Shown here piece by piece: positions 3,597 to 56,800 of a stretch of DNA of 64,000 nt (position 1 is its first letter; each line of letters begins with the position of its first letter). Origin of the DNA: Candidatus Krumholzibacteriia bacterium (GTDB lineage Bacteria; Krumholzibacteriota; Krumholzibacteriia; G020349025). The notes under the pieces were generated by a model that was given only the letters and a program-made list of their open reading frames with translations, ran no database searches and had not been told where the DNA came from. Location: positions 3,759 to 67,758 of the forward strand of contig DASRJW010000024.1 in assembly GCA_035649275.1 (NCBI GenBank), given 5' to 3'. Both the position numbers and the translations under genes were made by a program.

Positions 3597-3606
3597 GGGT
3601 TGCCGC

Positions 3607-6612: not shown

Positions 6613-7978
6613 ACCCCTGTCGTCGCGGTCCATGGCGCCGACGGTCATCGCTCCGGGCCACACCGCTGCCACGGTGACCGACAAGATCGCCGCCGTGGTC
6701 CTGCAGCGGACGCCGCTCTGGTTCTATCCGGCGTTCGGAGCGGCCTTCATGCTGCTCATGACCTTGCTCTACGCCATCACCTACCTCTTCGCCAAGGGCG
6801 TCGGCATCTGGGGCGTCAACAACCCGGTGGGCTGGGGCTTCGCCATCATCAACTTCGTCTGGTGGATCGGGATCGGTCACGCCGGCACGCTGATCTCGGC
6901 GATCCTCCTCCTCATGCGCCAGAAGTGGCGCACTTCGATCAATCGCTTCGCCGAGGCCATGACCCTCTTCGCCGTGGCTTGCGCCGGCTTGTTCCCCATC
7001 CTGCACCTGGGGCGCCCTTGGCTCGCCTACTGGCTCTTCCCCTACCCGAACACCATGTGGGTGTGGCCGCAGTTCCGCAGCCCGCTGATCTGGGACGTCT
7101 TCGCCATCTCCACCTACATGCTGGTGTCGCTCATGTTCTGGTACGTCGGGCTGATTCCGGATGTGGCGACGCTGCGCGATCGCACGAAAAACAAGATCGG
7201 CCAGATCGTCTACGGCATGATGGCCATGGGCTGGCGCGGCTCGGCGAAGCACTGGCACCACCACGACACCGCTTGCATCCTGCTGGCGGCGCTGGCCACG
7301 CCGCTGGTGGTGTCGGTGCACTCGGTGGTGAGCTTCGACTTCGCCGCCGGCATCATTCCCGGCTGGCACACCACGCTCTTCCCGCCCTACTTCGTGGCCG
7401 GCGCCATCTTCGCCGGCTTCGCCATGGTGATCACGCTCTGCATTCCGCTGCGCGCCGCTTTCGGCCTGCACGACTTCATCACCGAGTGGCACGTGCGCAA
7501 CATGGCCAAGGTCATGCTGGCCACGGGCCTCATCGTCAACTACGGCTACGGCATCGAGCTCTTCATCGCCTGGTATAGCGGCAGCCCCTACGAGACCTTC
7601 ATGCTCAGCAACAGGATCGGCGGGCCGTACCGCTTCATCTGGTACGCCCTCATCCTCTGCAACGTGGTGGCGACGCAGTTCCTCTGGTCGGCGAAGGTGC
7701 GTTCCTCCGCCGTCGCCCTCTGGGTGGTAGCCATGTTCATCAACGTGGGGATGTGGCTCGAACGTTTCGTCATCGTCGTCACCAGCTTGCACCGGGACTT
7801 CATGCCCTCCGCCTGGGGCATGTATTACCCCACCAAGTTCGACTGGATGACCTTCCTGGGCAGCATCGGTCTGTTCCTCTCCCTCATGTTCCTCTTCGTC
7901 CGGCTCCTGCCGATGATCTCGATCTTCGAGATCCGCGGCATCCTGCCCAAGACACGGGCAGGGGAAAGGAGCGCCTGA
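6602..7978 (+). CDS. actC: Alternative Complex III subunit ActC (NrfD/PsrC-like polytopic membrane quinol-binding subunit)
   Basis: Highly hydrophobic multi-TM protein (WWIGIGHAGTLISAILLLM, LFPYPNTMWVWPQF) in the expected operon position. Confidence 0.8.
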   Translation: MATEPLSSRSMAPTVIAPGHTAATVTDKIAAVVLQRTPLWFYPAFGAAFMLLMTLLYAITYLFAKGVGIWGVNNPVGWGFAIINFVWWIGIGHAGTLISAILLLMRQKWRTSINRFAEAMTLFAVACAGLFPILHLGRPWLAYWLFPYPNTMWVWPQFRSPLIWDVFAISTYMLVSLMFWYVGLIPDVATLRDRTKNKIGQIVYGMMAMGWRGSAKHWHHHDTACILLAALATPLVVSVHSVVSFDFAAGIIPGWHTTLFPPYFVAGAIFAGFAMVITLCIPLRAAFGLHDFITEWHVRNMAKVMLATGLIVNYGYGIELFIAWYSGSPYETFMLSNRIGGPYRFIWYALILCNVVATQFLWSAKVRSSAVALWVVAMFINVGMWLERFVIVVTSLHRDFMPSAWGMYYPTKFDWMTFLGSIGLFLSLMFLFVRLLPMISIFEIRGILPKTRAGERSA

Positions 7979-8523
7979 TGCAAGTGCACCGCCAGCCCCT
8001 GCATGGCGTCATGGCCGAGTTCGATCACTCGGACAGGTTGATCGCCGCGGTGAAGGCGGTGCGGTCCCAGGGCTACACACAGCTGGACGCCTACACCCCC
8101 TATCCCATCGAGGCTCTGCACCATGCCCTCGGCCACCACCATTCGCCGTTGCCGCGCATGGTGCTGGCCGGCGGCATCACCGGCGCTCTCGGTGGCTTCC
8201 TACTGCAGACCTGGACCAGCACCGTGGCCCTGCCGCTCAACGTCGGCGGCAAGCCCTTCTTCAGCTGGCCGGCCTTCATCCCCGTCACCTTCGAGTGCAC
8301 GATTCTCTTGGCGTCGTTAACCGCCGTCTTGGGGATGCTGGCGCTCTCCGGTTTGCCCCGGCCGCACCACCCGGTGTTCAACGTCGAGCGCTTCGCCATG
8401 GCGAGCCGGGACCGCTATTTCCTCTGCATCGAAGCTGGCGATCCTCTCTTCGACGTCGACAAGACGTGCCAGTTCCTCTGGACCCTGGAGCCGACGCATG
8501 TGGCCGAAGTCGCCGAAACCTGA
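7978..8523 (+). CDS. actD: Alternative Complex III subunit ActD
   Basis: The ATG at 7978 overlaps the actC stop (ATGA). About 180-aa protein with two TM helices and operon context. The track ORF 7753..8523 carries a spurious N-terminal extension. Confidence 0.7.
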   Translation: MQVHRQPLHGVMAEFDHSDRLIAAVKAVRSQGYTQLDAYTPYPIEALHHALGHHHSPLPRMVLAGGITGALGGFLLQTWTSTVALPLNVGGKPFFSWPAFIPVTFECTILLASLTAVLGMLALSGLPRPHHPVFNVERFAMASRDRYFLCIEAGDPLFDVDKTCQFLWTLEPTHVAEVAET

Positions 8524-9142
8524 AAGCCGCGCCGCCGCCCTGGTCGTGGCGCTGCTGGCGCTTCCGGGCTGCATCCGGCTCGACATGTACAACCAGCCGC
8601 GCTACGAGCCGCTGGAGGCGAGCCGGTTCTATGCCGACGGGCGCTCCGCCCGGCAGCTTCCTGCCGGCACGGTGGCCCGGGGCACGCTGCTCGAGGATCG
8701 GGCCTACGCCACCGGCACGGTGAACGACTCGACCTTCGCCACCGAGCTGCCGTTCGCGCTGACGCCGGAGCTCCTGCAGCGCGGCCGCGAGCGCTACGGC
8801 ATCTTCTGCTCCGTCTGTCACGACGGCACCGGGTCCGGGCGCGGCATGGTGGTGCGGCGCGGCTACAAGCAGCCGCCGTCCTTCCACATCGAGCGGCTGC
8901 AGCAACAGCCGGCGGGCTATTTCTTCGACGTCATCAGCCGCGGTTTCTCCACCATGCCCAGCTACGCCGCTTCCATCCCCATCGCCGATCGCTGGGCCAT
9001 CGTGGCTTACCTGCGAGCGCTGCAGCTGTCGCAGCAGGTCGCGGTGCGCAACTTGCCGGAGCCGTGGCGGGGCGAGATCGAAGCCGCGGCGAATCAGGCA
9101 GCCGCAGGGAAGAAGGAGCCAGCAGGCCATGAGCATAGGTGA
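8498..9142 (+). CDS. actE: Alternative Complex III subunit ActE, monoheme cytochrome c lipoprotein
   Basis: Lipobox LLALPGC, a single CSVCH heme motif, and operon position. Confidence 0.8.
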   Translation: MWPKSPKPESRAAALVVALLALPGCIRLDMYNQPRYEPLEASRFYADGRSARQLPAGTVARGTLLEDRAYATGTVNDSTFATELPFALTPELLQRGRERYGIFCSVCHDGTGSGRGMVVRRGYKQPPSFHIERLQQQPAGYFFDVISRGFSTMPSYAASIPIADRWAIVAYLRALQLSQQVAVRNLPEPWRGEIEAAANQAAAGKKEPAGHEHR

Positions 9143-10334
9143 CGCGCCTTCGCTGGCGGTGCTGCGCGCCGCGGCCGTGCCGGCCGGCTGGACGCAAGAC
9201 CTGCGCAAGCGGGCCCTGTGGTTCGCCATCCCGGCCGCGGTAGCCTCGGTGGCCGGCGCCATCGTCGCACCCCAGGCCTTCTACCGCGCCTACCTCACCG
9301 GCTTCGTCTTCTGGCTCGGCGTGCCCCTGGGCTGCCTGGGGCTCCTGCTCCTCACCCACATGACCGGCGGCAGCTGGGCTCTGATCATGCGGCGGCTCCT
9401 GGAGGCGGCGACGCGCACCCTGCCCCTTCTGGTGCTCCTCTTCGTCCCCGTGCTGCTCGGCCTGCGAACGCTGTACTCCTGGACCGACGCCGAGAAGGTG
9501 GCGGCGAGCGCCATCCTGCAGCACAAAGCGCCGTACCTGAACTTGCCGTTCTTTCTGCTCCGCACCGCCCTCTACTTCCTGATCTGGGGGCTCTTCGCCT
9601 TCGTGCTCAACCGCTGGTCGCTGGAGCAGGATCGGACCGGGGCCTCGACGCTGCCACGGCGACTGCAGGGTGCCGGCGGTGTCGGCTTGCTCGTCTTCAT
9701 GCTGGCCGGGAGCTTTGCCAGCTTCGACTGGCTCATGTCCCTCGACCCGCTGTGGTTCTCCAGCATCTACGGCATGCACTTCGTCGTCGGCCAAGCGGCC
9801 TCCGGCCTCTGCTTCGCCATCCTGGTGGCTCGCTCGCTCGGGCGCTCGCAGCCCTTGGACCGGGTCTACGCCCCGCGGCACCTGGACGACTACGGCAAGC
9901 TCTTGCTCGCCTTCATCCTCCTCTGGGGCTACATGACCTACTCGCAGTACCTGATCATCTGGTCCGGCAACCTCCCGGAGGAAATCACCTTCTATGTGCG
10001 CCGGCACGCCGGGGGCTACATGGTGCTGAGCTTCGTCATCGCCGCCCTGCACTTCGCCCTCCCTTTCTTCCTGCTCTTGTCCAAGAGCATCCGCAGCAAT
10101 CCCCAGCGCCTGGTGTGGGCGGCGGTTCCCGTCTTCGTCGGCCACTGGCTCGATCTGGTCTGGCAGGTGGCGCCATCGCTGGATCCGGAGGGACCGGCGC
10201 TGCACTGGCTCGATCCGGTGGTGACGCTCGCCATCGGCAGCGTCTGGCTCGTCGCCTTCGCCTGGCAGCTGCCGCGACGCGCACTTCTGCCGCAGAAGGA
10301 CGCACACCTGGAGGAGGCCTTGGCGGATGAGTGA
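9129..10334 (+). CDS. actF: Alternative Complex III subunit ActF (second NrfD-like membrane subunit)
   Basis: Polytopic membrane protein paralogous in character to ActC, in operon position. Confidence 0.75.
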   Translation: MSIGDAPSLAVLRAAAVPAGWTQDLRKRALWFAIPAAVASVAGAIVAPQAFYRAYLTGFVFWLGVPLGCLGLLLLTHMTGGSWALIMRRLLEAATRTLPLLVLLFVPVLLGLRTLYSWTDAEKVAASAILQHKAPYLNLPFFLLRTALYFLIWGLFAFVLNRWSLEQDRTGASTLPRRLQGAGGVGLLVFMLAGSFASFDWLMSLDPLWFSSIYGMHFVVGQAASGLCFAILVARSLGRSQPLDRVYAPRHLDDYGKLLLAFILLWGYMTYSQYLIIWSGNLPEEITFYVRRHAGGYMVLSFVIAALHFALPFFLLLSKSIRSNPQRLVWAAVPVFVGHWLDLVWQVAPSLDPEGPALHWLDPVVTLAIGSVWLVAFAWQLPRRALLPQKDAHLEEALADE

Positions 10335-10806
10335 CCAGCATGCCAAGGGTCCCGGCACCGGGCACGACCACGAGCCGGAAACGTTCGATCGCGAGATCAG
10401 CGTCCGGCCTCTCGTCGCCTTCGCCGTCGGTCTCGTGGTGGTCATCATCGTTTCCGGTGTGGCCATGTGGGGACTCTCGGTGTTGCTCAAGGCGCGCGAG
10501 GAAGCCCAGGACCGGCCGCTCTCGCCGGTGGTGCAGCGCGAGGGCGCGCCCCCGGTGCCGGAGCCGCATCTGCAGACGACGCCGGAGCTGGATCTCAAGG
10601 CGATGCGGGCCCACGAGGATTCGCTCCTGCACTCCTACGCCTGGGTGGACCGGAATGCCGGCGTCGCCCGCATCCCGTTGGAGCGCGCCATGGAGCTTTT
10701 GGTGCAGCAGGGCTTGCCGACGCGAGCCGAGCCTCTGCCCTGGACGCGGCCCGGCACCTGGCGTGATCAGAGCCTGCAACGGCTGGCGCGGGAGGGTGGG
10801 CCGTGA
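10327..10806 (+). CDS. Small single-TM membrane protein in the act operon (possible ActG)
   Basis: 159 aa with one TM helix (LVAFAVGLVVVIIVSGVAMWGLSVLL). It overlaps both actF and sco by 4-8 nt. The name is inferred only from position. Confidence 0.5.
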   Translation: MSDQHAKGPGTGHDHEPETFDREISVRPLVAFAVGLVVVIIVSGVAMWGLSVLLKAREEAQDRPLSPVVQREGAPPVPEPHLQTTPELDLKAMRAHEDSLLHSYAWVDRNAGVARIPLERAMELLVQQGLPTRAEPLPWTRPGTWRDQSLQRLAREGGP

Positions 10807-11696
10807 AGCGCCTCGTTCTCGCTTGCCTCCTCCTTGGTTGGGCCGTCGCGGCGGCGGGCCAGCCCGGCGTCCCGGCGTCCCGGCAACCGGGCGCGGCGGC
10901 ACCGAGCCCGAGCGCCGGCACCTCGGCGTCGAGCCCGAGCGCTGCCGCCGCCAACCAGAGCGGCTTGCCCCGGGCGCTGCGCGAGGTGGGCTTCGACCAG
11001 AAGATAGGGACGATGCTGCCGCTGCAGTTGCGTTTCCGCGATGAAACCGGCGCCACGGTGGAGCTGGGCAGCTTCTTCGGCCAGCGCCCGGTGCTCCTCT
11101 CTCTCGTCTACTACGAGTGCCCCATGCTCTGCTCCATGGCGCTCAACGGCCTGGTCTCGAGCTTGCGGGCCTTGAACATGGAACCCGGGCGTGACTTCGA
11201 GATCGTCACCGTGTCCTTCGATTCCACCGAAGGTCCCGCGCTGGCGGCGGCGAAGAAGGCGAAGTACTTGGAGGAATACCACCGTCCCGGAGCGGCGGCG
11301 TCCTGGCATTTCCTCACCGGCGAGGGGCCGGCGATCCGGGGACTCACCGAGAGCGTGGGCTTCCGCTACACCTGGGACGAGCCGACCAAGCAGTTCGCCC
11401 ATGCGAGCGGCCTCATCGTCACCACGCCGGCGGGTGAGCTGGCGCGCTATTTCTTCGGCATCGAGTACGCACCACGCGACCTGCGGCTGGGTCTGGTGGA
11501 GGCGTCGAAGGGCAAGCTGGGCAACGTCGTCGATCAGGCGCTGCTCTACTGCTTCCGCTATGACCCGGAGTCGGGGACGTACGCCGCGGCGGCGCTCAAC
11601 CTGGTGCGCGCCGGCGGCGTGGTCACGGTGATCTTGATCGCGGTGTTCATCTTGTGGATGCGACGGCAGGAGCGCCGGCGCCTGCTCCCGAGCTGA
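10803..11696 (+). CDS. sco: SCO1/SenC family copper chaperone (thioredoxin-like)
   Basis: CPMLC (CxxxC) copper-binding motif in a thioredoxin-fold context (LVYYECPMLCSMALNGL), a signal/TM N-terminus and a C-terminal TM. It sits between the act and cox genes. Confidence 0.8.
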   Translation: MKRLVLACLLLGWAVAAAGQPGVPASRQPGAAAPSPSAGTSASSPSAAAANQSGLPRALREVGFDQKIGTMLPLQLRFRDETGATVELGSFFGQRPVLLSLVYYECPMLCSMALNGLVSSLRALNMEPGRDFEIVTVSFDSTEGPALAAAKKAKYLEEYHRPGAAASWHFLTGEGPAIRGLTESVGFRYTWDEPTKQFAHASGLIVTTPAGELARYFFGIEYAPRDLRLGLVEASKGKLGNVVDQALLYCFRYDPESGTYAAAALNLVRAGGVVTVILIAVFILWMRRQERRRLLPS

Positions 11697-11716
11697 CGGA
11701 GGACCCGAGCGACACC

Positions 11717-12649
11717 ATGTCGAAAGCACCCTTCATGCCCCCGCAGGGGTCCAGCTTTGCCGGGCAGGTCGATCTCCTCTACCTCTTCCTGGTGGCGATC
11801 AGCCTGTTCTTCTCGCTCCTCATCGCCGGCCTCATCGTCTACCTCGCGGTGCGCTACAAGCGCCGGTCGCCGCGGGACATCGGCGTCCCGATTCATGGCT
11901 CGGGGGTGCTGGAGATCGCCTGGTCGGTGATCCCGCTCGTCATCATGCTGGGTTCCTTCGTCTGGGGCACGATGTTGTTCTTCCACCTCTCCCGGCCGCC
12001 GGCGGACGCGGTGGAGTACTTCGCCGTCGGCAAGCAGTGGATGTGGAAGTTCCAGCATCCCGACGGCACCCGGGAGATCAACACCTTGCACCTGCCCGTG
12101 GGGCAGCCGGTGAAGGTCACATTGACCTCGGAGGACGTGATCCACGACCTCTTCGTCCCGGCCTTCCGGGTCAAGATGGACGTCCTCCCGGCGCGCTACA
12201 GCACCATCTGGTTCCAGCCCGTTCGCGTCGGTACCTACCATCTCTTCTGCGCCGAATACTGCGGCGCCGAGCATTCGCGCATGGGCGGCTGGATCGTGGT
12301 GCAGGAGCCCGAGGACTACGAGCGCTGGCTGGCGGGGGAGCGCGGCCAGGAGAACCGGCTCGCCAGCCCGGAGGACCTCTTCAAGCGCTTCGCCTGCGAG
12401 TCGTGCCACCGCACCGACTCGGTGGCGCGTGCGCCCCAGCTGGCGGGTCTGTTCGGCAAGCAAGTGCGCTTCAAGGACGGCAGTGCCATCGTGGCCGACG
12501 ACAACTACATCCTGGAGTCGATCCTCAAGCCGAACGAGAAGATCGTCGCCGGGTATCAACCGATCATGCCCACGTTCCAGGGCCAGATGAGCCAGGAGGA
12601 AGCGCTCGCTCTCGTGCGCTACGTCCGTGGGCTCGAAGCGGGGAAGTGA
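11717..12649 (+). CDS. coxB: Cytochrome c oxidase subunit II, caa3-type with a fused C-terminal cytochrome c domain
   Basis: CuA motif [15 protein letters not shown] plus the heme c motif CESCH. The start is taken at MSKAPFM; the track ORF starts earlier, at 11654. Confidence 0.85.
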
Positions 12650-14270
12650 GATGCCCTCCACCGAGCGCGCCGTCCTCGAGACCGAGGACTACATCAATGC
12701 CGATTACAACATCAAATCGTGGCTGCTGACCACGGATCACAAGCGCATCGCCGTGCTCTATCTGATCTCGGTGACGCTGTTCTTCCTCATCGGCGGCCTC
12801 TTCGCCGTCCTCATCCGTCTGGAGCTGCTGACGCCGCAGGGCGATCTGATGCAGTCGGACACCTACAACCGCGTCTTCACCATGCACGGCGTGACGATGG
12901 TGTTCTTCTTCCTCATCCCCTCCATCCCCACGGTGCTAGGCAACTTCCTCGTGCCCATGATGGTGGGGGCCCGGGATCTGGCCTTCCCCAAAGTGAACCT
13001 GGCTAGCTGGTACGTGTTCAACCTGGCCGGGGTCTTCACCCTCTACGCTATGTTCGCCGGCGGCGTGGACACGGGCTGGACCTTCTACACGCCCTACAGC
13101 ACCACCTACTCCAACACCCACGTGGTGGCCACCGGGCTCGGCGTCTTCATCGCCGGTTTCTCCTCCATCATGACCGGCCTCAACTTCATCGTCACCATCC
13201 ACCGCATGCGGGCGCCGGGGCTCACCTGGTTCCGCCTGCCCCTCTTCCTCTGGGCGCATTACGCCACCAGCCTAGTGATGATCCTGGGTACACCGGTGAT
13301 CGCGATCACCACCCTGCTGCTGGCAGTGGAGCGGGGTTTCAAGATCGGCATCTTCGACCCCAATCTGGGCGGCGACCCGGTGCTCTTCCAGCACCTGTTC
13401 TGGTTCTACTCGCACCCGGCGGTGTACATCATGGTGCTCCCGGCCATGGGTGTGATCAGCGAGCTCATCGCCGCTTTCGCGCGCAAGCCCGTCTTCGGCT
13501 ACAAGATCGTCGCCGCGTCGAGCATGTCCATCGCCATCCTCGGCTTCCTGGTCTGGGGCCACCACATGTTCGTGAGCGGCCAGTCGGTGTACGCCGCCAC
13601 GGTGTTCTCCGTCCTCAGCATGCTGGTGGCGGTGCCGTCGGCGGTGAAGGTGTTCAACTGGACAGCGACGCTGTACAAGGGCTCGGTCTCTTTCGAAACC
13701 CCCATGCTCTACGCCCTGGGTTTCATCGGCCTCTTCACCGTGGGCGGGTTGACCGGGGTGATGCTGGCGACGCTCGGGCTCGACGTGCACGTGCACGACA
13801 CCTACTTCGTGGTGGCGCATTTCCACTACATCATGGTGGGCGGCACGATCATGGCGTACCTGGGGGGGCTGCACTTCTGGTGGCCGAAGATGTCCGGACG
13901 CCTGTATCCGCAGTTCTGGTCCAGGCTCTCGGCGCTCATCATCTTCGTCGGCTTCAACCTCACCTTCTTCCCCCAATTCCTCCTCGGCTACATGGGGATG
14001 CCACGGCGCTACCACGTCTATCCCGAGGAGTTTCAAGTGCTGCACGTGCTCTCCAGCGCCGGCGCCTCCATCCTGGGGGTGGGCTACATCCTGCCGGTGT
14101 TCTATCTCACCTGGTCGATGCGCTACGGGCCGCGGGCCTCGGCCAATCCCTGGGGGGCCACGGGGCTCGAGTGGCAAACGTCGTCGCCGCCGCCGACGCA
14201 CAACTTCCTGGAGACCCCGGTGGTGACCACGGACGCGTACCACTACAGCGAAGAGGTGACCGTTGGCTAA
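12627..14270 (+). CDS. coxA: Cytochrome c oxidase subunit I
   Basis: Canonical heme-copper oxidase subunit I sequence ([24 protein letters not shown]; [17 protein letters not shown]). 547 aa. Confidence 0.92.
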
Positions 14271-14919
14271 CCCGCAACCCCTGCTGGCAACTCATTTCGA
14301 CACCCTGGATCAGCAGCGGGAATCCGCTTCGCTGGGGATGTGGGTGTTCCTGATCACCGAAGTCATGTTCTTCGGCGGCCTCTTCACCGCCTACATCGTC
14401 TATCGCTCGCGGCTGCACGGTCTCTTCGACTACGGCAGCCACGAGCTGAACGTCACGCTCGGCGCCATCAACACCATCGTGCTCATCTGCAGCAGCCTCA
14501 CCATGGCCATCGCCGTCCGCGCCTCACAGCTGGGCGATCGGCGCACCCTGGTGCGCTTCCTCGTCCTTACCATGCTCCTGGGGTTGACCTTCCTCGGGAT
14601 CAAGGCGGTGGAGTATCAGGAGAAGTTCGTGCACCACCTGGTGCCCGGGCCGCACTTCCAGTGGCACGGCCCGCAGCCCCGGCAGATCGAGATGTTCTTC
14701 TCCTTGTACTTCGCCATGACCGGACTGCACGCGCTGCACATGATCGTGGGGGTAGGGCTCATCCTCTGGCTGCTGCCGCGGTCGGCGAAGGGGTTCTACG
14801 GCCCGGACTACCACCACCCCATCGAGTGCTTCGGCCTCTACTGGCACTTCGTCGACATCGTCTGGATCTTCCTGTTCCCGCTGCTCTATCTGCTCGGGCG
14901 CAGTCACTTCGTGGGCTAA
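14263..14919 (+). CDS. coxC: Cytochrome c oxidase subunit III
   Basis: Subunit III-like polytopic protein ([27 protein letters not shown]). Confidence 0.85.
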
Positions 14920-30321: not shown

Positions 30322-33096
30322 TCACTGTCCGATCACGCAGACCTTGCGGGATTGGCTCCTGGCGCCCTGGCTGAGCTTGACCAGGTAAACGCCAGAAGGA
30401 AGCTTCGCTTCTCGTCCGAGTCGCACGGTGTGCTGTCCGGGGCCGAAGGCGGACAGCGGGCGACTCCACACCCGGCGTCCTGCGGTGTCGAGAATCTCGA
30501 TCGCCCCCTGCACCTGGTCGGGAAGCGAAAACGACAGAGACATCTCGCGCACCACGGGGTTGGGGTGCACGGCGTCGAGCCTGAACGCAAGCGGGTAGGC
30601 GCTCATGTCGGTGGCACCGGGGATGTCCACCCACGTGACCTCGGAGTAGCGCTCCGTGCTGCCCGCCATCACGCTGGCGCGATAGGCGTACCGCAGCCCG
30701 GCCTGCACGTTGTGATCCTCGTACTGTGCCTGGCCGTCGGAACCCAGGGAAGCGCTGCCCGCCCATGCCCACGCGCTGCCATCCAAGGAGCGGTAGACGT
30801 TGGCGTGCAGGAACGCGCCTCCGAACAGGCTCCAGGTCAAGCGCACCTCACCGAGCAAGACTTCTACGTTGGTCAGCGCCGGCACCGCCGTCTCCGGATG
30901 GGACCAGGTGAGCGCCCAGGTCTCGTCCAGGCCGGGGCCGAGCCCGCCGTGCATCACCATTCGATCGCGCTCGCGGTCGTAGACGGCTGCGTGTCCCCAA
31001 CGATAGATCGGCGTCGGACCGTCGGGGGTCAGCTGTCGCCACTGCGGCTGGCCGCGCAGCGTCAACTCCCAGAGGTCCTGACTGCCGTAGAAGTACAGAT
31101 TGTCGTAGCCGCCGAAGATGACCAATCGCTCCCGCACTGGGTCGTAGATCGCCGATTGCTCCTCCCGAGGCGAGGGTGGGGTGCCGAAGGGTGCCAGTTG
31201 GACCCAAGTGAGATCGTCCAGCGACAGTGCCCAGACTTCGTTGAGGAACGTGTACGCGCTTCCGCCGAAGACCAGCATGCGGTGGCGGTCGCTGTCATAG
31301 ACCAACGAATGGCTGCCCCGGGGGCTCGGCGGCGTGCCGACCGGCGCGAGTTGCTCCCATTCGGGAACCGCCGGGTCGAGGTTGAGCGCCCACAGATCAT
31401 TGCGGCGGTAATTCTCCGAAACGCCGTCCCAACCGGCGAACAGGATCATGCGGTGGCCGCGCGGATCGTAGATCACACCGTGCCCCGCTCGGGCGGCGGG
31501 AGGGCCACCGGTGGTGACGAGCACGCTCCAGGTCGGCGGGTTGGTTGCGAAAGAGAGCTGCCAGAGATCGCCAAAGAGCCGATCGTCCCAGCCTCCGAAG
31601 ACGATTATCCGATCGCCCTCGGGATCGTAGATTCCCTCCACCAGGCGCCGGGGGGCCGGCGGGGTGCCGGCGGTCGTGAGCTGGCTCCACACCGGGTGAT
31701 CGTCGAGCGTGATGGTCCAGGAGCTGTTGAGATAGGATGCCACGTTGCTGCCGCCGAACAGCACCATACGGTGCCGGTGTGAATCGTAGGCGGAAGCGAA
31801 GGTGTGACGCACCGGTCCGGGACCGGGACCGACGAGAGGATGGCTCCAGGATGGGGGACCGCTCAAGCTGAGGACGAATGTACCGGTAGGCAGGCGGTAG
31901 TTCGTGCCGCCGCCGAACAGGATGGCTCGAGCCCCATCGTCATCGTAGACGGCGGTGTGTCCCCAGCGCGGACCGGGTCCAAAGCCGGTCGGCTCGAGCT
32001 CGGTCCAAAGCGGCGGGTTGGCCAGCAACAGCGTCCACGTGTCGCCGTACAAGAACGTGGCGTCGTAGCCACCGTAGATGATCAGTCGATCGTTCCCGGC
32101 GTCGTAGATCATCGAGTGCTCTTCGCGCGCTGCCGGCAACAACCCGGCCGCGGCGATCGGGGTCCACTCCGGGATTCCGCCGAGCGAAAGGGCCCAGACG
32201 TCGTTCCGAAAGTCCGTATCGGTACCGCCGAAGACCACCATGGCCTGGCGCAAATCGTCGTAGACCGCCTCATGGCTGGAGCGTGCGGTCGGACCATCCA
32301 CTGCCGGCGTGAGCTCGGTCCACTCGGGATTCCCGCCGAGGGAGAGAGACCAGACGTCCTTGCGGCGCTCCGTCGGGCCGGAAAGGCCGTCGTAGCCAGC
32401 GAAGACGATCATCCGATCTCGATCGGAGTCGTAGATCGCCGTGTGGCCGGCGCGCGCCACCGGAGTCGATCCGGCGGGTTGGAGCTGGCTCCACGTGGGC
32501 GGCGCGGTGGTGAAATCGAGTTCCCACACGTCACTCAGCAAGTCCCAGCTGTAGCCGGCGTACACGACCATGCGATCGCTGTTGGCGTCGTACACGGCGG
32601 TGTGGAACGCGCGGCTCAACGGCGGAGTGCCCTGGGTGGTGAGTGGCTCCCAAGCTGCCTGGGGAACGGTCAGGTCGAGAACCCAGGTGTCGTTGGTGAA
32701 ACCGCCGAAGATCACCATGCGATCCCGATTCGGATCGTAGATCGCGCTGTGTCCGATGCGTGCCGGACCGGCCGCGCCGCCCTGGCCCGAACCGGCGAGC
32801 AGAGACCACTCGCCATCGATCGGGTTGCTGGTGAGCGGAGGGGACGCTAAGGGCCCGGAGGCGATACGGGCACTCCTCAGGTTCGACAACGGGTGAAGCA
32901 TTCCGCCGTGGGGAATGCGAGTGAGCGCCGTGCGCTCGAAGCGGACATTGCCGGCCCAAGGGCGAGCGGCACGTGCCTCGACGTCGGGAAGAAGGGTGGC
33001 GGTCGATCTTTCCGCGGCGGTAGTCAGGGAAGAGTAGTGGAGCGCGAGCAAAATGACGGTCGCGACTCCCAGCCTAGAAACCAGGTTCGCGCGCAT
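30322..33096 (-). CDS. Secreted multi-propeller Kelch-repeat protein with a C-terminal T9SS/FlgD-Ig-like sorting domain
   Basis: N-terminal signal peptide. About 16 tandem Kelch motifs (...YDxxxDRMxxFGG...NDxWxL). The C-terminal segment SGVYLVKLSQG...KVCVIGQ resembles Por/T9SS C-terminal domains. 924 aa. Confidence 0.7.
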   Translation of the reverse strand: MRANLVSRLGVATVILLALHYSSLTTAAERSTATLLPDVEARAARPWAGNVRFERTALTRIPHGGMLHPLSNLRSARIASGPLASPPLTSNPIDGEWSLLAGSGQGGAAGPARIGHSAIYDPNRDRMVIFGGFTNDTWVLDLTVPQAAWEPLTTQGTPPLSRAFHTAVYDANSDRMVVYAGYSWDLLSDVWELDFTTAPPTWSQLQPAGSTPVARAGHTAIYDSDRDRMIVFAGYDGLSGPTERRKDVWSLSLGGNPEWTELTPAVDGPTARSSHEAVYDDLRQAMVVFGGTDTDFRNDVWALSLGGIPEWTPIAAAGLLPAAREEHSMIYDAGNDRLIIYGGYDATFLYGDTWTLLLANPPLWTELEPTGFGPGPRWGHTAVYDDDGARAILFGGGTNYRLPTGTFVLSLSGPPSWSHPLVGPGPGPVRHTFASAYDSHRHRMVLFGGSNVASYLNSSWTITLDDHPVWSQLTTAGTPPAPRRLVEGIYDPEGDRIIVFGGWDDRLFGDLWQLSFATNPPTWSVLVTTGGPPAARAGHGVIYDPRGHRMILFAGWDGVSENYRRNDLWALNLDPAVPEWEQLAPVGTPPSPRGSHSLVYDSDRHRMLVFGGSAYTFLNEVWALSLDDLTWVQLAPFGTPPSPREEQSAIYDPVRERLVIFGGYDNLYFYGSQDLWELTLRGQPQWRQLTPDGPTPIYRWGHAAVYDRERDRMVMHGGLGPGLDETWALTWSHPETAVPALTNVEVLLGEVRLTWSLFGGAFLHANVYRSLDGSAWAWAGSASLGSDGQAQYEDHNVQAGLRYAYRASVMAGSTERYSEVTWVDIPGATDMSAYPLAFRLDAVHPNPVVREMSLSFSLPDQVQGAIEILDTAGRRVWSRPLSAFGPGQHTVRLGREAKLPSGVYLVKLSQGARSQSRKVCVIGQ

Positions 33097-33416
33097 CGAT
33101 GGCCCCTTCCTGCAGGATCAGGGGATTGTGAGCGACAACAATACGTCCAATGCTTCGCATCGTCAAGAATTGCTTCCGACAGCTCGAACGCGGCTCGAGG
33201 CAACGGCCTGCGTCGCATCAGCTCAGACGGCCACCTGGAGCCACCAACCTTTCGCTCCCCAGTCGGTACTTGTGTTGACGGGGAGTCGCTGAGGGCCCTG
33301 GGCAAGCTGGGCCTCAAGGTGCGACATGGGCTCGGGGGCTGGATGGACTGACCCCGACTCCGTGAGTACCAGCCCAAAGGCGTTTAGAGCCCTCCGCGCG
33401 CAATGGGAGGAACGCC

Positions 33417-33947
33417 ATGAAATCTTGCCTACGACTGTCCATTCTCTGCGTCCTGCTTCTCGCTACCGGATGGGCCCATGCAGGGCCAGCGGACGACACT
33501 CGAGCCGTCTTCAAGACGCTGCTCACATCTGTTCCCGTGCCTCCGGAATGGGAGGGAATTTGGGTAACAGTAGACTCGACCGACAACTGCTTTTATCCTG
33601 ACGGCGCCAGCGCTTTGTCATCCGAGTACTGGATCTGCGCGGGCCGGGATTTCTATCCTGACGTAACCTGCACAGGGACAGCGACGGCAACGACTCTCCA
33701 TCTCCACTGCGGCTCCATGGATTGCGGCGACGAATGCTGTAGTGGCTACAGCGTGACGTTCGACGTTACACGAAATGGAGATTCGTTCGACTCCGTGGAG
33801 GTATACGAGGCCTTTTGGGGTTGTGGTTATGAGCTGTGCACGACCTTACGCGCCCATGGCACACGCACCGGGCCCGTCCCCAAGGATTACTGTGTCACTC
33901 CGGTTTTGCCTACGACCTGGGGTGGCGTGAAAGCCATGTATCGTTGA
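33417..33947 (+). CDS. Small secreted cysteine-rich protein (10 Cys in the mature part)
   Basis: Signal peptide MKSCLRLSILCVLLLATGWAHA. No recognisable family. Sits in a low-GC islet. Confidence 0.5.
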   Translation: MKSCLRLSILCVLLLATGWAHAGPADDTRAVFKTLLTSVPVPPEWEGIWVTVDSTDNCFYPDGASALSSEYWICAGRDFYPDVTCTGTATATTLHLHCGSMDCGDECCSGYSVTFDVTRNGDSFDSVEVYEAFWGCGYELCTTLRAHGTRTGPVPKDYCVTPVLPTTWGGVKAMYR

Positions 33948-43987: not shown

Positions 43988-46693
43988 CTAAGGTTTGCGT
44001 GTCGTATCCGGCGGGGTGGGTGCCGGTGCGGGCGGAGGCGGCAGGATCCCCTTCACCGCCTCCTGGAGTGAGCGTCCGAGCTTCTTCTTCGCTTCCTCGG
44101 TCGCCACGTTGCCGAGGAGCCGCTGGATCTGCTGCGCCCCCAACGCCTGCAGACCGGTGCGCCGCGCCGTGGCCTGCAGATCCGGTCGCACCTTCGGAGC
44201 GCGGAGCGTGCCATCGATGTCGAAGTCGAGCACGAGGCGGCCGGCGCTATCGGTGAACAGCGAGCCCAGGCCTCGCGTCGCGGGCGCCCGCAACGCCTGC
44301 TGGGTGAGGGCCGAGGAGAGCTGCACGCCGAGGGCGAGATCGAGCCCGCCATCGAGGCCGATCTTCCCCTCGACTGTCGCATCGGCATCGTTGCCCTGCA
44401 GCTTCAGTGAAGGCAGCTTGACCTGTCCCGACTCGACGGCGAAGGAGAAGCCGACCTGGCGGTAACTCAAGTTGGACAGGCTCGGCAAGCCGAGGACGGC
44501 GCCGAGCTGTTTGAGGATCGGAAGTTCCTTGAAGCGGCCGTTCACCGCCAGGCCTTGCCCCTTGCCGGTCAACTGTTGGCGCATCGCTGCCGCACCAGCG
44601 CCAGTGACATTCCAGGACGAAGTGCCGTCCAAGGTTCCTTCCACCAGGCTGCCAGCGCGGAAAAAGTCTTCGAGCAGTCCACCGAGCTGCACCTTGTCCA
44701 TCTCGACGACGAGCTCCTGCCGCGGTGCTGCGGGGGTGGCGAGATCCACCTTCATGCTGCCGCCGAGTTTGCCGTCGTACGTCTGGGCGGTGAGATTCGG
44801 CAGCTCCAGCGTCGTGCCATCGAGGTGCAGATCGCTCTGCAGTGCAGCAGCACGGATCTTGTTGAGCCGGCCGCTCTTCGCCTGCAAGTGGCCGCGGGCC
44901 CGTGCCGGCGTGCCGGCGAGCTCGGCCTGGCAATCTTCGAGGAGGAAATTGTCGCGCTCGAGCCGGGCGGCGCGGAGTGTGAGGTGGAAATCTTGAGCTT
45001 CGCTCTTCCATTGCAGGCGGGCGTCGCGGAGGGCAGTGCGTTGCGCCTGCACCACGCCGGCTTCGAGGTCGAGCTCGAGATCGAGAGGTGGCAGCGGCGG
45101 AAGCAGCGTCTTGGCGCTTCCCGTCCCCTTGCCGCGGGTGGCGGCGGCCGTGTCGGTGCCAGTGGCCGTTGCAGGGAGCAGAGCATCCAAGTCGAGCGCC
45201 GCGGCTCGACCGCGCAAGGCGATCCGCGGCCGCTTGGGCGGCAGCGCCGGCTGTACCGTGCCGGAGCCGGCGAGGCGCGCCTCGCCGCAGGCGAGGTTCA
45301 GTTTTTCCACCTGGATCGTGGCGCCCGCGCCCACGAGCCGCGCTTGGAGCTCGAGCGGCTGCCGAAGCTGGGGCGTTTGGATCCGCACGCCTTCGAGCGC
45401 TAGCGGGCCGTGGAGGGAGGGCAGGGACTTGCCGGCCAGCCTACCTTCGAGGCGCGCGTCGGCTTGCAGCGTCCCCTCGAGGCGGTATGGCGGCGGCTTG
45501 GGCGCGAAGGTCGCGGCCACTGCGGCGAGCGTTGCGAGATCGAGCCGGGTACGCAGTTGTACGGAGTACGCGGCGTTCTCTGGGGCGAAGAGCGAGACGA
45601 TTTCACCCTGAAGACTTAGGGGCGCCTCGCCGATCCGGGCTTCGAGATGTTGGATCTGCAGCGAATCGCCGTGCAGCTTCGCTGTGAGCTCCAGGTCGCT
45701 GATGGAGGCCGGCCACTCTCGCGACTGCAGCCGGCCGCCGGCGAGGGCGAGATCACCCTCGAGGTGTGGCTTGCCCGTTCCCGGAGCATCGAGACGGAGG
45801 TCGATCCGGGCGCGACCTGATGCCTCCACCCCGGCCAGGCGCGGCAGCCGTTCCTTGGGCAAGAGCTCGAGGATCTCGGCCAGCTCGAACTCCTGGGAAC
45901 GCGTGCGCAAGTGCAGCTCTGGTTTGCGATCGTGGAGCGCCGCTTCACCTTCCAGCTGCAAGACGAAGTCCTGGAGGCGAAGGCGCAAGCTGTCGATGTG
46001 GGCGCTCGAAGCCCCGAGGTCGGCGCGCAGCACCGGTTCAAGCCGCACGGTGAGCGCGGGGAACTCACCGAGGGGACCGCGGGCCCGGAGTGCCGGGCTC
46101 TCGATCCAGCCCTGGAGACGGAGGTCGTGAAGGTTGCGGTCCAGGCCCATGGCGAGCTCAGCGGCGAGCGGCCCCTGTAACTCGAAGCCACTTTGCGCGC
46201 TCCGCAGCTCCAGGGCACCGTCTCGCAACAAGAGCTTGCGGATCTGCAACGCCATCGGCGTCCCCGCCTTGGCCGGTGCTGCCGGTGCGCTCGGCGTGCC
46301 GGGGGCACGATCGGTGGCGAAGTTCCACTGCCCCTGCTCATCCTGTTCCAAGAAGAGACGCAGTCCGTCGAGCACGAGGGACCTCACCTCGAGCTGGCGG
46401 CGGAGGAGCGCCAGGAAGCCGAGCTCGAGCTGCATGGCGTCGAGCTCGACCACATGCGGCGAGGCGAAACCGGGTCGCGCCCCGATGCGCACGGCCTCGA
46501 GGCGGGCAGCGAGCGGCATCAGGTCGAGCCGGGCACTGCCGATCTCCACCGGCCGTCCCAGTGCTGCTTCGAGACGAGGCTCGGCGAGGGCGAGCAGGCG
46601 CTCCGGAGGGAAGGCCGCGCGCAACCCGAGGAAGAGGGCGACGAGCGCGAGCACGAGGACGGCAGGGATGATGAGGAGGCGCTTCCTTCTCAT
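43988..46693 (-). CDS. asmA: AsmA-family outer-membrane biogenesis protein
   Basis: N-terminal membrane anchor MRRKRLLIIPAVLVLALVALFL, then a long repetitive beta-rich region. 901 aa. Confidence 0.65.
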   Translation of the reverse strand: MRRKRLLIIPAVLVLALVALFLGLRAAFPPERLLALAEPRLEAALGRPVEIGSARLDLMPLAARLEAVRIGARPGFASPHVVELDAMQLELGFLALLRRQLEVRSLVLDGLRLFLEQDEQGQWNFATDRAPGTPSAPAAPAKAGTPMALQIRKLLLRDGALELRSAQSGFELQGPLAAELAMGLDRNLHDLRLQGWIESPALRARGPLGEFPALTVRLEPVLRADLGASSAHIDSLRLRLQDFVLQLEGEAALHDRKPELHLRTRSQEFELAEILELLPKERLPRLAGVEASGRARIDLRLDAPGTGKPHLEGDLALAGGRLQSREWPASISDLELTAKLHGDSLQIQHLEARIGEAPLSLQGEIVSLFAPENAAYSVQLRTRLDLATLAAVAATFAPKPPPYRLEGTLQADARLEGRLAGKSLPSLHGPLALEGVRIQTPQLRQPLELQARLVGAGATIQVEKLNLACGEARLAGSGTVQPALPPKRPRIALRGRAAALDLDALLPATATGTDTAAATRGKGTGSAKTLLPPLPPLDLELDLEAGVVQAQRTALRDARLQWKSEAQDFHLTLRAARLERDNFLLEDCQAELAGTPARARGHLQAKSGRLNKIRAAALQSDLHLDGTTLELPNLTAQTYDGKLGGSMKVDLATPAAPRQELVVEMDKVQLGGLLEDFFRAGSLVEGTLDGTSSWNVTGAGAAAMRQQLTGKGQGLAVNGRFKELPILKQLGAVLGLPSLSNLSYRQVGFSFAVESGQVKLPSLKLQGNDADATVEGKIGLDGGLDLALGVQLSSALTQQALRAPATRGLGSLFTDSAGRLVLDFDIDGTLRAPKVRPDLQATARRTGLQALGAQQIQRLLGNVATEEAKKKLGRSLQEAVKGILPPPPAPAPTPPDTTRKP

Positions 46694-53859: not shown

Positions 53860-56800
53860 TTGCGTTTCCCTCGACACCTCGGGTTCTTGCTCCTCGGCCT
53901 CGTCGCGGTACCGGCGCAGGCGCAGCTGCAGTACTTCGGCAAGAACAAGGTCGAGTACGAGGAGCAGGACTGGCGTGTCCTGCAGACCCGGCACTTCGAC
54001 GTGCACTTCTACGCCGGTGAAGCGGCCATGGTGCACGACGCGGCGCGCTTGGCGGAACGGGCCTACACCGAGCTCGCCGCCGTCCTCGGTCACGAGTTGC
54101 CGCGGCGCATTCCCCTCGTCCTCTACGCCTCGCACTCCGACTTCCAGCAGACTCACATCACGCCGTCCATGATCGACGTCGGCACCGGGGGCATCACCGA
54201 TCTGGCGCGGCGGCGCGTCTTCCTGCCCTTCAACGGTTCCTGGGGCGACTTCCAGCACGTGCTCACCCACGAGCTCGTGCATGCCTTCGAGATCGACATT
54301 CTTTTCGATTCCACCCAGGGCGATCCGCTGAATCCCTTCGCCTTCGCGCCGCCGCTCTGGGTGATGGAGGGCCTGGCCGAGTACCTGTCGCGGCCCCAGC
54401 AGGACAGCTACACCGCCATGTGGCTGCGCGATGCGGCCCTCTCGGGACGGCTCCTGTCGCTGCCGCAGCTGGAGCAAGTCCAGGACATCCGTATTTACCG
54501 CTTCGGCCAGAGCGTCTTCTCCTACTTCGCCGAGCGTTACGGCAGCCGCCGCATCGGCGACCTGCTGCGTGCGCTCGCCACCAGTCGCAGCCTGGAGCGG
54601 GCGTTCGAGGATGTCGCCGGCGTCTCGTTGCAGCAGTTCTCCGAGGCGTGGACCACGGCCGTGCGCCGGCGGCACCTGCCCGAGCTCGGGCAGCACCAGC
54701 TGAACCGCGAGTACGCCACCCCGGTGGTCACCCGAGAGAGCGAGAACGCCGGCATGCTCCTCGTGCCGAGCATCTCGCCGGACGGCCGCTACCTGGCCTA
54801 CGTGAGCGACGCCGGGCTCACCCGCGACCTCTATGTCCGCGATATGGAGGAAGGGCGCTCGCGCCGGGTCGTGCACGGCGAGCAGAGCGGAGACTTCGAA
54901 TCGCTGCGTTTCTTCAACGCCAGCGCCGCCTGGGCGCCCGACGGCAAGACCCTCGCCTTCGTCTCGCAGTCGCGCGGCGAGGACGCCCTCAATCTCCTCG
55001 ACGTGCAGCGCCGACGTGTCGTCGCCAAATATCGCTTTGGTCTCGACGAGCTGCAGACTCCGACCTTCTCGCCGGACGGCGGCGAGCTGGTTTTCGTCGG
55101 TCTCGAGGGTGGGCAGAGCGATCTCTATCGCGTCCGCAGGGATGGCACCGATCTGCGCCGGCTCACCGCCGACCGCGCCGGCGAGCGGGATCCGCAGTGG
55201 TCACCGGACGGCCGGAAACTGGTCTACGTCACCGATGACGGTGAGGACGCGGACTTCGAGGCACTGCGCTTCGGCACTTGGAAGATCGCTCTTCTGGAGC
55301 TGGAGAGCGGCAGACGCGAATTGCTACGCCCCTTCAGAACAGGTGCCGCTGCCAGCCCTGTCTGGTCCGGAGACGGCGGCTCGATCGCCTTCATCGCCGA
55401 CCCGGACGGCATCCCGAACATCTATGTGCTGCACCTCGCGACGTCGAACGTCTTCCGCCTCACCGACACGGTGACCGGTGTGGGTGGCGTCTTGCCGGAG
55501 AGTCCGGCCCTGTCCTGGGCCCGGGGGAGCGATCGCCTGGTGTTCTCGGCCTTCGGTAACAGCGGCTGGGACATCTTCCGTATCGACCGCCCGGCCAGCG
55601 TCATGCGTCCCCTGGAAGGCGCCATCGCCAACCTCGTCACGAAACACGGTGCGACGGAGGCGGCAGGCCTTGTCGCTCCCGACTCCATGAGCGCGGTCAG
55701 CACAGTGGCGGACTCCGTCGCTCGCGACTCCCTCGCGATGAAGACCGTGTCGGTCGACTCCATCGCGCCGTCCTCGGTTGCTCGAGACACCATGGCGCCG
55801 TCCTCGCTTGCGTGGGACGGTATCGCGCCAGCCTCGGCTGCTCGCGACTCCAGCGCGGCCGCTGGCGCAGCATCGGCGGCCCTTCACCCCGGCGCCGGCA
55901 TGACCTCGCCGGCGGCGGCCACGACGCCGCCAGGCGTGCTGCTGCCGGCGCCCGAAGCGATGGATTTCGTCGAGCGCCCGTACCATGCGCACCTCGCCCC
56001 CGATGTCTCGCAGGTAGCAGGGGTCGTGGGAAGCCAGGGCGGTTTCGGCGGTGCCTCGCTCATCCACTTCAGTGACCTCCTCGGCGATCATTTGCTCAGT
56101 GTGGGCTTCGGCATCTATGGCTCGCTCAAGGATTCCGATCTTTCCCTCGAGTATCTGAACCGTTCGGGACGAACGAACTACCAGTTCGGCGTTTTCCAGC
56201 ACCAGCGGCGTTACGGGTTCCTGGCCTCCGCGGTAGCCGGAGTCGAGAAGCAGACGTATCTCGGCGTGCGCGCCGCCGCGATCCGTCCCTTCGACAAGTT
56301 CTCTCGTGTCGAAATGTCGATGCAGCTCGCCGCTGTTCGCGGCCGCTTCTTCTTGGGTGAGACCTTGGGGGATGGGAGCGTGCAGGAGCTACGCAGCTTC
56401 GCGGGCCCCGGGCTCGCCTACGTGGTGGACACGGCGCTCTTCGGTTCCACCGGCCCGATCATGGGGCGTCGCCTGCGCCTCGGCCTCGAGTCCGGTTTCG
56501 GCGAGCTCGACTTCCGCACCCTCGAACTCGACTGGCGGCAGTACTGGAGCTTCGGGGCCAGTTTCACGCTGGCCGCCCGTGGCTACCTCGCCGGGAGCTG
56601 GGGGGCGACGCCGCAGAGTTTCTTCCTGGGTGGAGCGAACACGCTGCGCGGTTACGCCTACGGCGCGCTCGCGGGAACTCACGCTGGTCTCGCAGGACTG
56701 GAGTTCCGCTTCCCACTCCTGCGCTACCTCGCCCTCGGCTGGCCCTTGCCGCTCGAGCTCGGCAACGTGCGCGGCGTTCTCTTCGCCGAATCCGGCTCGG

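Follow-up and report, generated by a model that had tools for sequence, protein, structure and literature searches.

A predicted exported tandem-propeller Kelch protein with a sorting-type C-terminal domain in a Krumholzibacteriia bacterium

[quoted passage not shown] In RgpB, the Lbeta3beta4 loop, FDMNGRR, carries a Gly that is required for secretion, a basic residue lies in the last strand, and contact between the Ig domain and the C-terminal domain (CTD) is needed for secretion (PMC11285876). Outside Bacteroidota, several other FCB phyla are reported or suspected to have T9SSs (PMC11285876). A second point of reference is FlgD, the flagellar hook-capping protein, in which a similar Ig domain is internal. 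For Kelch propellers, the best structural matches are LZTR1 and KLHDC2, which are intracellular eukaryotic ubiquitin-ligase adaptors acting as substrate receptors.

We analyzed 64 kb of DNA (64,000 nucleotides; the window) from a Candidatus Krumholzibacteriia bacterium. An ORF of 924 aa with an ATG start occupies 30322..33096 on the minus strand; the first-pass annotation had given these coordinates exactly, and the strand, which it did not state, is added here. The ORF is a real gene. Its codon-position GC (0.65/0.53/0.81) is typical for real genes in a window of 68% GC, and the ORF call places the stop codon at 30322..30324 (minus strand). NCBI already annotates the product as a 'kelch repeat-containing protein', in a gene model that begins at residue 70. 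A Shine-Dalgarno-like GGAAGGGG, read from the sequence at 33103..33110 (minus strand), precedes the ATG by 6 nt, and for this reason we favor the 924-aa start over that of NCBI. The public gene model is corrected as a result, since its start at residue 70 drops the signal peptide. The gene lies between a convergent TrmO-like gene and a divergent gene for a small secreted protein, and is apparently transcribed on its own. A sibling from the same 90% cluster led to a syntenic 44-kb contig that holds no further genes of interest. As a separate observation, unrelated small secreted proteins, including the divergent neighbor, carry a short C-terminal tag, [ST]WGx[IV]KxxYR, that is represented by 8 examples and apparently undescribed.

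The NCBI protein HZM14709.1, labelled Candidatus Krumholzibacteria, is identical to the Kelch protein at 854 of 855 positions. The protein is an ordinary member of a very large Eisenbacteria/Krumholzibacteria soil-bacterial family with at least 1,418 homologs, most of them in Candidatus Eisenbacteria MAGs and with many paralogs per genome. A Gemmatimonadota- or Bacteroidota-like lineage had been proposed from the sequence. The phyla named were not the right ones, the host being Krumholzibacteria and the family mainly Eisenbacteria. The broader FCB-like inference holds, because both of these soil candidate phyla are usually placed with the FCB superphylum.

Most of the protein consists of Kelch repeats (Pfam PF24681, E 5.7e-110; PF13415, E 1.6e-65), with six further Kelch models matching beside PF24681. 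The repeats are in tandem, and the structure model gives each blade about four strands. A count of the blade motif places 12 blades, starting at aa 113, 162, 215, 272, 324, 377, 430, 483, 536, 593, 644 and 699 (repeat period 49-57 aa). These form two six-bladed propellers, both modelled at pLDDT >90 and supported by Foldseek, where the first-pass annotation had estimated about 16 blades in two or three propellers. Propeller 1 (31810..32814, minus strand) comprises blades 1-6 (aa 113-429) and an N-terminal strand, aa 96-101, that probably closes its ring. Propeller 2 (30892..31809, minus strand) comprises blades 7-12 (aa 430-735). In Foldseek, LZTR1 and KLHDC2 provide six-bladed Kelch domains that align with each propeller half over ~320 residues, at rmsd 2.2-2.9 A, 21-26% identity and a target TM-score of 0.8-0.84. 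The two halves are 47% identical to each other. Blade i matches blade i+6 at a mean of 48% identity, which exceeds the 38-43% found at offsets 1-5 and suggests that the tandem propellers arose by duplication of a six-blade unit. No catalytic domain was recognised in the protein by Pfam and NCBIfam.

The N-terminus, MRANLVSR-LGVATVILLALHY-SSLTTAA, reads as a signal peptide (aa 1-~27; 33016..33096, minus strand). It has a basic n-region, the hydrophobic core LGVATVILLALHY, small residues at TTA|A and no lipobox Cys; residues 10-24 are modelled as a helix, and the hydrophobic N-terminus is kept in the family consensus. Together with the Kelch matches and the two propellers, it bears out the earlier description of a secreted multi-propeller Kelch protein. 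The signal peptide is followed by a low-complexity, predicted disordered linker of ~65 aa (aa ~28-94; 32815..33015, minus strand; pLDDT <50 for residues 20-92). Between the propellers and the CTD lies a seven-stranded beta-sandwich that is FN3-like (aa ~736-828; 30613..30891, minus strand; C-terminal model with mean pLDDT 90.6). Both linker and sandwich had escaped the earlier reading. The FN3-like domain has no Pfam match; the family profile matches PDB 3mpc, an 'Fn3-like protein', at E 2e-4, and a Foldseek search with the C-terminal model returned only generic tandem Ig/FN3 pairs.

The last 82 aa (843-924; 30325..30570, minus strand) form the CTD, a compact seven-stranded (3+4) Ig-like beta-sandwich of sorting type, supported by TIGR04183, the structure model and PDB matches. 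It ends the protein at residue 924, so that the whole has the layout of T9SS cargo, with a signal-peptide-like N-terminus and the CTD at the extreme C-terminus. Against TIGR04183 (T9SS type A sorting domain) it scores 29.2 bits in the whole protein and 35.2 bits in the last 92 aa, above the cutoff of 23, while against PF18962 it reaches 25 bits, just under the cutoff of 27. One of the two HMM checks proposed for the C-terminus was thus positive and the other narrowly missed. The few PDB sequence matches of the CTD include the CTDs of mirolase and RgpB. The loop LDTAGRR (D870, G873, R874), the G902-x-Y904 motif and K918 in the last strand, within SRKVCVIGQ, are its characteristic features. Among 34 homologs, D870, G873, R874, G887 and G902 are invariant and Y904 is nearly so; D870, G873 and R874 are also invariant in 24 C-terminal sequences, and the family consensus at K918 is K/R. 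The CTD therefore has both the essential Gly of the Lbeta3beta4 loop and the basic last-strand residue by which such domains are defined (PMC11285876). With the CTD as its only query, a word-index homolog search gave no matches, because the domain is too short and too divergent for the index.

The distribution of the domain was followed in 79 related loci, gathered with an 8-sequence alignment and amounting to ~1.1 Mb of Eisenbacteria-type MAG sequence, or ~0.3 genome-equivalents. There, the CTD is present on 101 of the 534 credible ORFs that are 200 aa or longer, and in essentially all of ~125 ORFs it stands at the extreme C-terminus. The FN3-like domain and the CTD travel together and end exactly at the C-terminus of host proteins of 177 to ~4,000 aa, whose passenger domains are unrelated (FG-GAP, Kelch, DUF5122, PliI, phytase, PKD, hydrolase). 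Judged from these sequences, the pair is a reusable cassette placed on many unrelated passenger domains. Since it is strictly C-terminal on ~100 unrelated passengers, the CTD behaves like a sorting signal rather than a functional module.

The reading that we prefer, with a probability of roughly 60%, is that the Kelch protein is an exported binding protein, cell-surface or released, that uses the FN3-like + CTD cassette for type-IX-like export. The precursor would cross the inner membrane through Sec and then fold in the periplasm. The cassette, acting as an address label, would then direct the protein across the outer membrane in the manner of type IX secretion. A translocon would recognise the CTD, and the next step would be either CTD cleavage with attachment of the passenger to the cell surface, or release of the protein. 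The propellers would be ligand-binding platforms, a role that we infer purely by analogy of fold with LZTR1 and KLHDC2. Because each genome has many paralogs, binding specificities may have diversified, for example for adhesion or the capture of polymers or prey in soil.

An alternative that we consider unlikely, but a serious contender, is that the CTD belongs to the FlgD-type Ig domains and serves for structure or anchoring, for example by binding the cell envelope or a matrix polymer, and not as a T9SS signal. The protein would then be periplasmic, or exported via T2SS, vesicles or an undescribed system. The profile comparisons speak for both readings. The family profile matches CTD chains of RgpB (E 0.0017-0.015) as well as Ig domains of FlgD (E 0.0013-0.0021), and on this measure the CTD resembles the two about equally, so that the label 'T9SS/FlgD-Ig-like' of the first-pass annotation was apt. 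The PF18962 score under cutoff and the many family members that match PF13860 (FlgD_ig) favor the FlgD-type reading, as does the best FlgD Ig value (0.0013, against 0.0017 for the RgpB CTD); however, the target protein itself has no PF13860 match at E <= 1, and it passes TIGR04183. The strictly C-terminal position on unrelated passengers also argues against it, as does the conservation of the Gly/Arg loop that is critical for secretion and of the basic residue in the last strand.

The FlgD-type reading draws further support from the search for T9SS machinery. HMMs for PorV (7 sequences), SprA (2) and PorU (3, without the CTD), made from sequences in the PeerJ supplement of PMC7323717 and hence from distant phyla, found none of these proteins in the 64-kb window, and HMMs from the same source found none in the 79 related loci. 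NCBIfam recognised no T9SS family among ten barrel-like or giant non-cargo ORFs of those loci. Neither translocon, shuttle or sortase genes nor GldKLMN/PorKLMN were seen in any of the sampled DNA (the window and the ~1.1 Mb of related loci), and no report of a T9SS in Eisenbacteria or Krumholzibacteriota was found in the literature searched. Nevertheless, a sample of ~0.3 genome-equivalents is far too small for this null to count as absence. The first-pass annotation had taken the CTD to imply a type IX-like system and had proposed a search for porU, porV and sprA. The HMM match upholds the domain assignment, and the type IX-like system itself stays a prediction, the machinery having been found neither in the window nor in the ~1.1 Mb. 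The interpretation of that annotation was to be given up only if machinery and HMM match both failed; the match exists, and thus it is not refuted.

Two candidates for the machinery were rejected. P0253, a cassette protein with a Peptidase_C25 match, is unconvincing as PorU because it is a fragment without the catalytic His and Cys. Metagenomes were also probed with GC-biased DNA for the SprA motif EAGNV...LFG[IV]K, which retrieved 45 true SprA genes, all Rhodothermota-like or Bacteroidota-like. The FN3-like + CTD cassette was linked to 0 of these 45 genes, and the most promising SprA locus (L100) proved to be from Flavobacteriales, so that the probe is uninformative on the lineage studied here.

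A broader version of the export reading, which we regard as doubtful, is that these phyla have massively expanded the FN3-like + CTD cassette (dozens of passengers per genome) and handle it by non-canonical machinery, either a very divergent T9SS or another outer-membrane route, with [ST]WGx[IV]KxxYR-COOH as a second tag. If this were true, the Kelch protein would be a marker of a new protein-sorting variant in a poorly known soil phylum. If complete genomes of these phyla truly have no SprA, PorV or PorU, something new would be needed to read the CTD.

We also consider it improbable that the protein handles carbohydrates, as a mutarotase- or lectin-like Kelch protein that acts on extracellular glycans, its propellers binding sugars and not proteins. 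Some cassette passengers elsewhere are carbohydrate- or cell-wall-related modules (PliI, PKD, Big_3_5, phytase), and the fold list includes, at lower rank, Kelch-fold specifier proteins with small molecules as substrates. However, peptide-binding Kelch domains head that list, and no sequence or profile match links the protein to carbohydrate-active families. Such a protein is compatible with the export route that we prefer and would differ in the ligand only. An enzyme of the galactose-oxidase or glyoxal-oxidase type is highly improbable: a few homologs are named 'galactose oxidase-like protein' (JGI) and Pfam describes Kelch_3 and Kelch_4 as 'Galactose oxidase, central domain', but these names only mirror the Kelch repeat models, no catalytic family is found in Pfam or NCBIfam, and the propellers are six-bladed, with LZTR1 and KLHDC2, whose Kelch domains bind peptides or proteins, as the best fold matches, where galactose oxidase has a seven-bladed copper domain.

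Taken alone, the Kelch gene adds one further member to the CTD-tagged surface proteins, and its modest value includes pointing to the apparently undescribed C-terminal tag next door. The wider significance is that, in uncultured Krumholzibacteria and Eisenbacteria, a single FN3-like + CTD cassette accounts for much of the secretome. These phyla therefore lend themselves to the question of how widely the T9SS, or something related to it, occurs outside Bacteroidota.

Compared with known systems, the likeness to LZTR1 and KLHDC2 is at the level of the fold only and says nothing firm on the ligand. Those proteins are intracellular, whereas the Kelch protein is exported on the reading that we prefer, and it has two propellers fused in tandem without BTB/BACK or any other partner domain. 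With the FlgD Ig domain (PF13860; PDB 7eh9, 7bhq), the family profile shares the core L-x-D-x-x-G-R-x-V ... G-x-H ... G-x-Y at E ~1e-3; in contrast to FlgD, the domain is terminal here and common to unrelated secreted proteins. The protein differs from RgpB and mirolase in that its host is not a member of Bacteroidota, its Pfam score falls just under threshold, and its tail is invariably joined to one specific FN3-like domain, the two making up the cassette. In common with T9SS type A cargo, it has an N-terminal signal peptide, a passenger followed by an Ig/FN3-like domain and a C-terminal beta-sandwich of ~80 aa and seven strands, a D-x-x-G-R(R) loop joining strand 3 to strand 4, a basic residue in the last strand, and a tail that serves many unrelated passengers. 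The pairing of the FN3-like domain with the CTD parallels the packing of the Ig domain against the CTD in RgpB.

The most probable reading of the 924-aa Kelch protein, which we put at about 0.6, is that it would be exported by Sec, fold in the periplasm and cross the outer membrane through a T9SS-type pathway directed by its C-terminal sorting-type domain (CTD). Its tandem Kelch binding platform, with a protein or glycan as putative ligand, would then be displayed on the surface or released. The gene is a single ORF with an ATG start (30322..33096, minus strand), and its codon-position GC of 0.65/0.53/0.81 is typical of genuine genes of the window (~68% GC). A Shine-Dalgarno-like GGAAGGGG lies 6 nt 5' of the ATG. 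The N-terminus, MRANLVSR/LGVATVILLALHY/SSLTTAA, is read as a Sec signal peptide, with no lipobox, on account of its sequence and the hydrophobic N-terminus conserved among homologs; the structure model has a helix at residues 10-24. The NCBI entry in its 90%-identity cluster, HZM14709.1 ('kelch repeat-containing protein [Candidatus Krumholzibacteria bacterium]', 117.6-kb contig), is the same at 854 of its 855 residues. That gene model uses a non-ATG start codon at residue 70, misses residues 1-69 and therefore has no signal peptide. The upstream ATG with its SD-like site and the conserved hydrophobic N-terminus speak against this start. Gene order is the same on a sibling contig. The neighbours (TrmO-like, DUF6624, MFS transporter, tryptophan dioxygenase, GNAT-family protein and lipid kinase) are unrelated in function, and since the gene is convergent or divergent with its neighbors, it is apparently a unit of its own.

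The first-pass annotation had called the tail 'T9SS/FlgD-Ig-like' and looked to TIGR04183 or PF18962 for recognition. The NCBIfam type A sorting domain TIGR04183 exceeds its cutoff of 23 (29.2 bits for the whole protein, 35.2 for the last 92 aa), whereas PF18962 (Por_Secre_tail, aa 843-921) falls short with 25 bits against 27. Modeled on its own, the stretch aa 736-924 (mean pLDDT 90.6) consists of two β-sandwiches of seven strands each, the first FN3-like and the second the CTD. The family profile matches the 'Fn3-like protein' 3mpc over the first sandwich (E 2e-4), and Foldseek with the tail model returned FN3-FN3 and Fab-like tandems. The only match of a single-sequence PDB search was the mirolase T9SS CTD (8qb1, E 0.12). 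By E-value, the family profile matches RgpB CTD chains (5hfs 0.0017, 7pq4 0.0028, 5ag8/5ag9 0.015) and FlgD Ig domains (7eh9 0.0013, 7bhq 0.0021) about equally, so the label is accurate at the superfamily level. The main rival explanation, which we regard as unlikely, is that the FlgD-like Ig tail anchors the protein or has a structural role, or that some system other than T9SS reads it. The Pfam scan gave no match to the FlgD Ig family model PF13860 on the protein itself.

The pairing of FN3-like domain and CTD, here called the cassette, behaves as a protein-sorting signal, because it is strictly terminal and common to unrelated passengers, the domains that precede it. The CTD HMM matches only the Kelch protein in the window and roughly 125 ORFs in ~1.1 Mb of related loci, nearly always up to the last residue of the ORF and frequently in tandem arrays. 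In a sample biased toward cargo by its 79 seed genes, 534 ORFs of 200 aa or more are compositionally credible, and 101 of these bear a CTD. Arrays of 3-6 CTD genes per 20 kb occur in Eisenbacteria MAGs (loci L011, L020, L030, L038, L053 and L056), where some of the proteins are giants of 2,200-3,200 aa. At E <= 1e-3 the FN3-like + CTD profile matches 354,294 cluster representatives, of which 2,750 reach E <= 1e-30. Among the best matches, many cover all 182 positions of the profile in a single alignment that ends at the exact C-terminus, and proteins ending in the full profile are 177 to about 4,000 aa long. Passengers in 68 cassette proteins include FG-GAP (9), Kelch (8), DUF5122 propeller (6), PliI (4), phytase, PKD, hydrolase and others; PF18962 matched 24 of the 68 and PF13860 four.

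So large a CTD-cassette secretome raises the question of whether canonical T9SS machinery exists in these phyla to serve it. Several FCB phyla other than Bacteroidota are listed as possible holders of a T9SS (PMC11285876, introduction); none of the papers searched mentions one in Eisenbacteria or Krumholzibacteria. No T9SS component was found in the 64-kb window. HMMs for PorV, SprA and PorU, built from published sequences (supplement of PMC7323717), gave no match in the window and 79 related loci, a weak negative because the DNA sampled amounts to ~0.3 genome-equivalents and the HMMs come from distant phyla. An NCBIfam scan of ten barrel-like or giant ORFs gave no T9SS family. P0253, the only cassette protein bearing Peptidase_C25, was rejected as the PorU sortase: its catalytic His and Cys are replaced, and this C25-like fragment fused to a cassette is possibly an inactive homolog of C25. 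Metagenomes probed with a GC-restricted DNA query for a conserved SprA motif yielded 45 genuine SprA genes, which all looked Rhodothermota- or Bacteroidota-like; none (0/45) had the cassette. The most promising of them turned out to belong to Flavobacteriales.

That the protein has Kelch repeats and that NCBIfam models its tail was already on public record, and its ORF, Kelch nature and T9SS-like tail are all real, as codon-position GC and the Pfam and NCBIfam matches attest. PF24681 matches with E 5.7e-110, together with six other Kelch models. There are exactly 12 copies of the blade motif R-x3-x(2,3)-[IVAL]-Y-D, spaced at a period of 49-57 aa, rather than the approximately 16 blades first supposed. 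With 34 homologs as input, AlphaFold2 gave a model of mean pLDDT 82 that rises above 90 throughout aa ~110-735, and residues 20-92 are predicted to be disordered. Each half of the Kelch region superposes by Foldseek on solved six-bladed Kelch domains, that of LZTR1 (target TM-score 0.83-0.84, rmsd 2.2 A, ~325 columns, 26% identity) and, similarly, that of KLHDC2. Because of the 12 blades and these superpositions, the region is taken to form two six-bladed propellers; of the 'two or three' proposed earlier, two stand and a third does not. Six blades per propeller and the lack of any detected catalytic family make an oxidase function very unlikely. The halves are 47% identical. Identity between blades i and i+6 averages 48%, against 38-43% at offsets 1-5; an insertion is also common to blades 3 and 9. 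Together these observations modestly support duplication of a six-blade unit.

Homologs at E < 1e-5 number 1,418 or more, the nearest non-self ones at 53-54% identity. The 79 loci, to which single MAGs contribute up to seven paralogs and which were returned from one-genome-per-species GTDB contigs, are labeled Candidatus Eisenbacteria (56), 'uncultured bacterium' (11), Candidatus Krumholzibacteriia (1) or otherwise (11), and some of the last group are probably mis-binned. Kelch relatives lie on contigs labeled Saccharimonadales, Patescibacteria, Saccharibacteria or Roizmanbacteria (L024, L040, L057, L060) and at L043, L044, L052 and L072; MAG labels over these eight loci are CPR, Verrucomicrobiia or Actinomycetota. 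The high-GC CTD-bearing contigs among them are probably mis-binned Eisenbacteria.

Eight small secreted proteins (168-275 aa) end in C-x-[TV]-P-[VA]-x3-4-[ST]-W-G-x-[IV]-K-x-x-Y-R(-D/E)-COOH. Two are in the window, at 33417..33947 (plus strand; the divergent neighbor of the Kelch gene) and 57038..57679 (minus), and neither is recognized by Pfam or NCBIfam. The others are at L011 21662-22426 (minus), L023 1782-2405 (plus), L028 8459-9388 (plus), L032 12024-12977 (minus), L033 1390-2160 (plus) and L055 8649-9314 (plus). They are alike only over the last 15-23 residues, their bodies are unrelated, and no transmembrane helix follows the motif in any of the eight. In 1.87 million six-frame residues the motif stands at an ORF end in 9 of 12 occurrences (chance expectation about 0.06), and Bacteroidota/Rhodothermota control loci (467,000 residues) have none. 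Neither Pfam nor NCBIfam has a model for it. The motif looks like an undescribed C-terminal tag, possibly a sorting tag of Eisenbacteria/Krumholzibacteria.

The large envelope proteins of the window are an Omp85/PD40/peptidase-MA fusion and an AsmA/TamB-like protein. The former (1,046 aa, 53860..57000, plus strand) unusually joins a peptidase-MA-like N-terminus, PD40/TolB-like beta-propeller repeats and a C-terminal Omp85-family barrel. The latter (AsmA/YhdP/TamB-like, 901 aa, 43988..46693, minus strand) has a weak GspN-like match at its C-terminus. By eye, in translations from 2946..14919 (plus strand), cytochrome c oxidase subunits come after an alternative complex III-like gene set, which indicates that this Krumholzibacteria MAG would respire aerobically.

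The CTD of the Kelch protein shares several features with characterized sorting domains. D870, G873, R874, G887 and G902 are invariant among 34 full-length homologs and Y904 nearly so. Its 'LDTAGRR' is the counterpart of 'FDMNGRR' in the Lβ3β4 loop of RgpB, a loop whose Gly is essential to secretion in P. gingivalis (PMC11285876). Characterized CTDs have a conserved basic residue in the last strand, as does this one (PMC11285876). Export also requires that the CTD be in contact with the Ig-like domain before it (PMC11285876), and this contact parallels the fixed pairing of FN3-like domain and CTD in the family described here.
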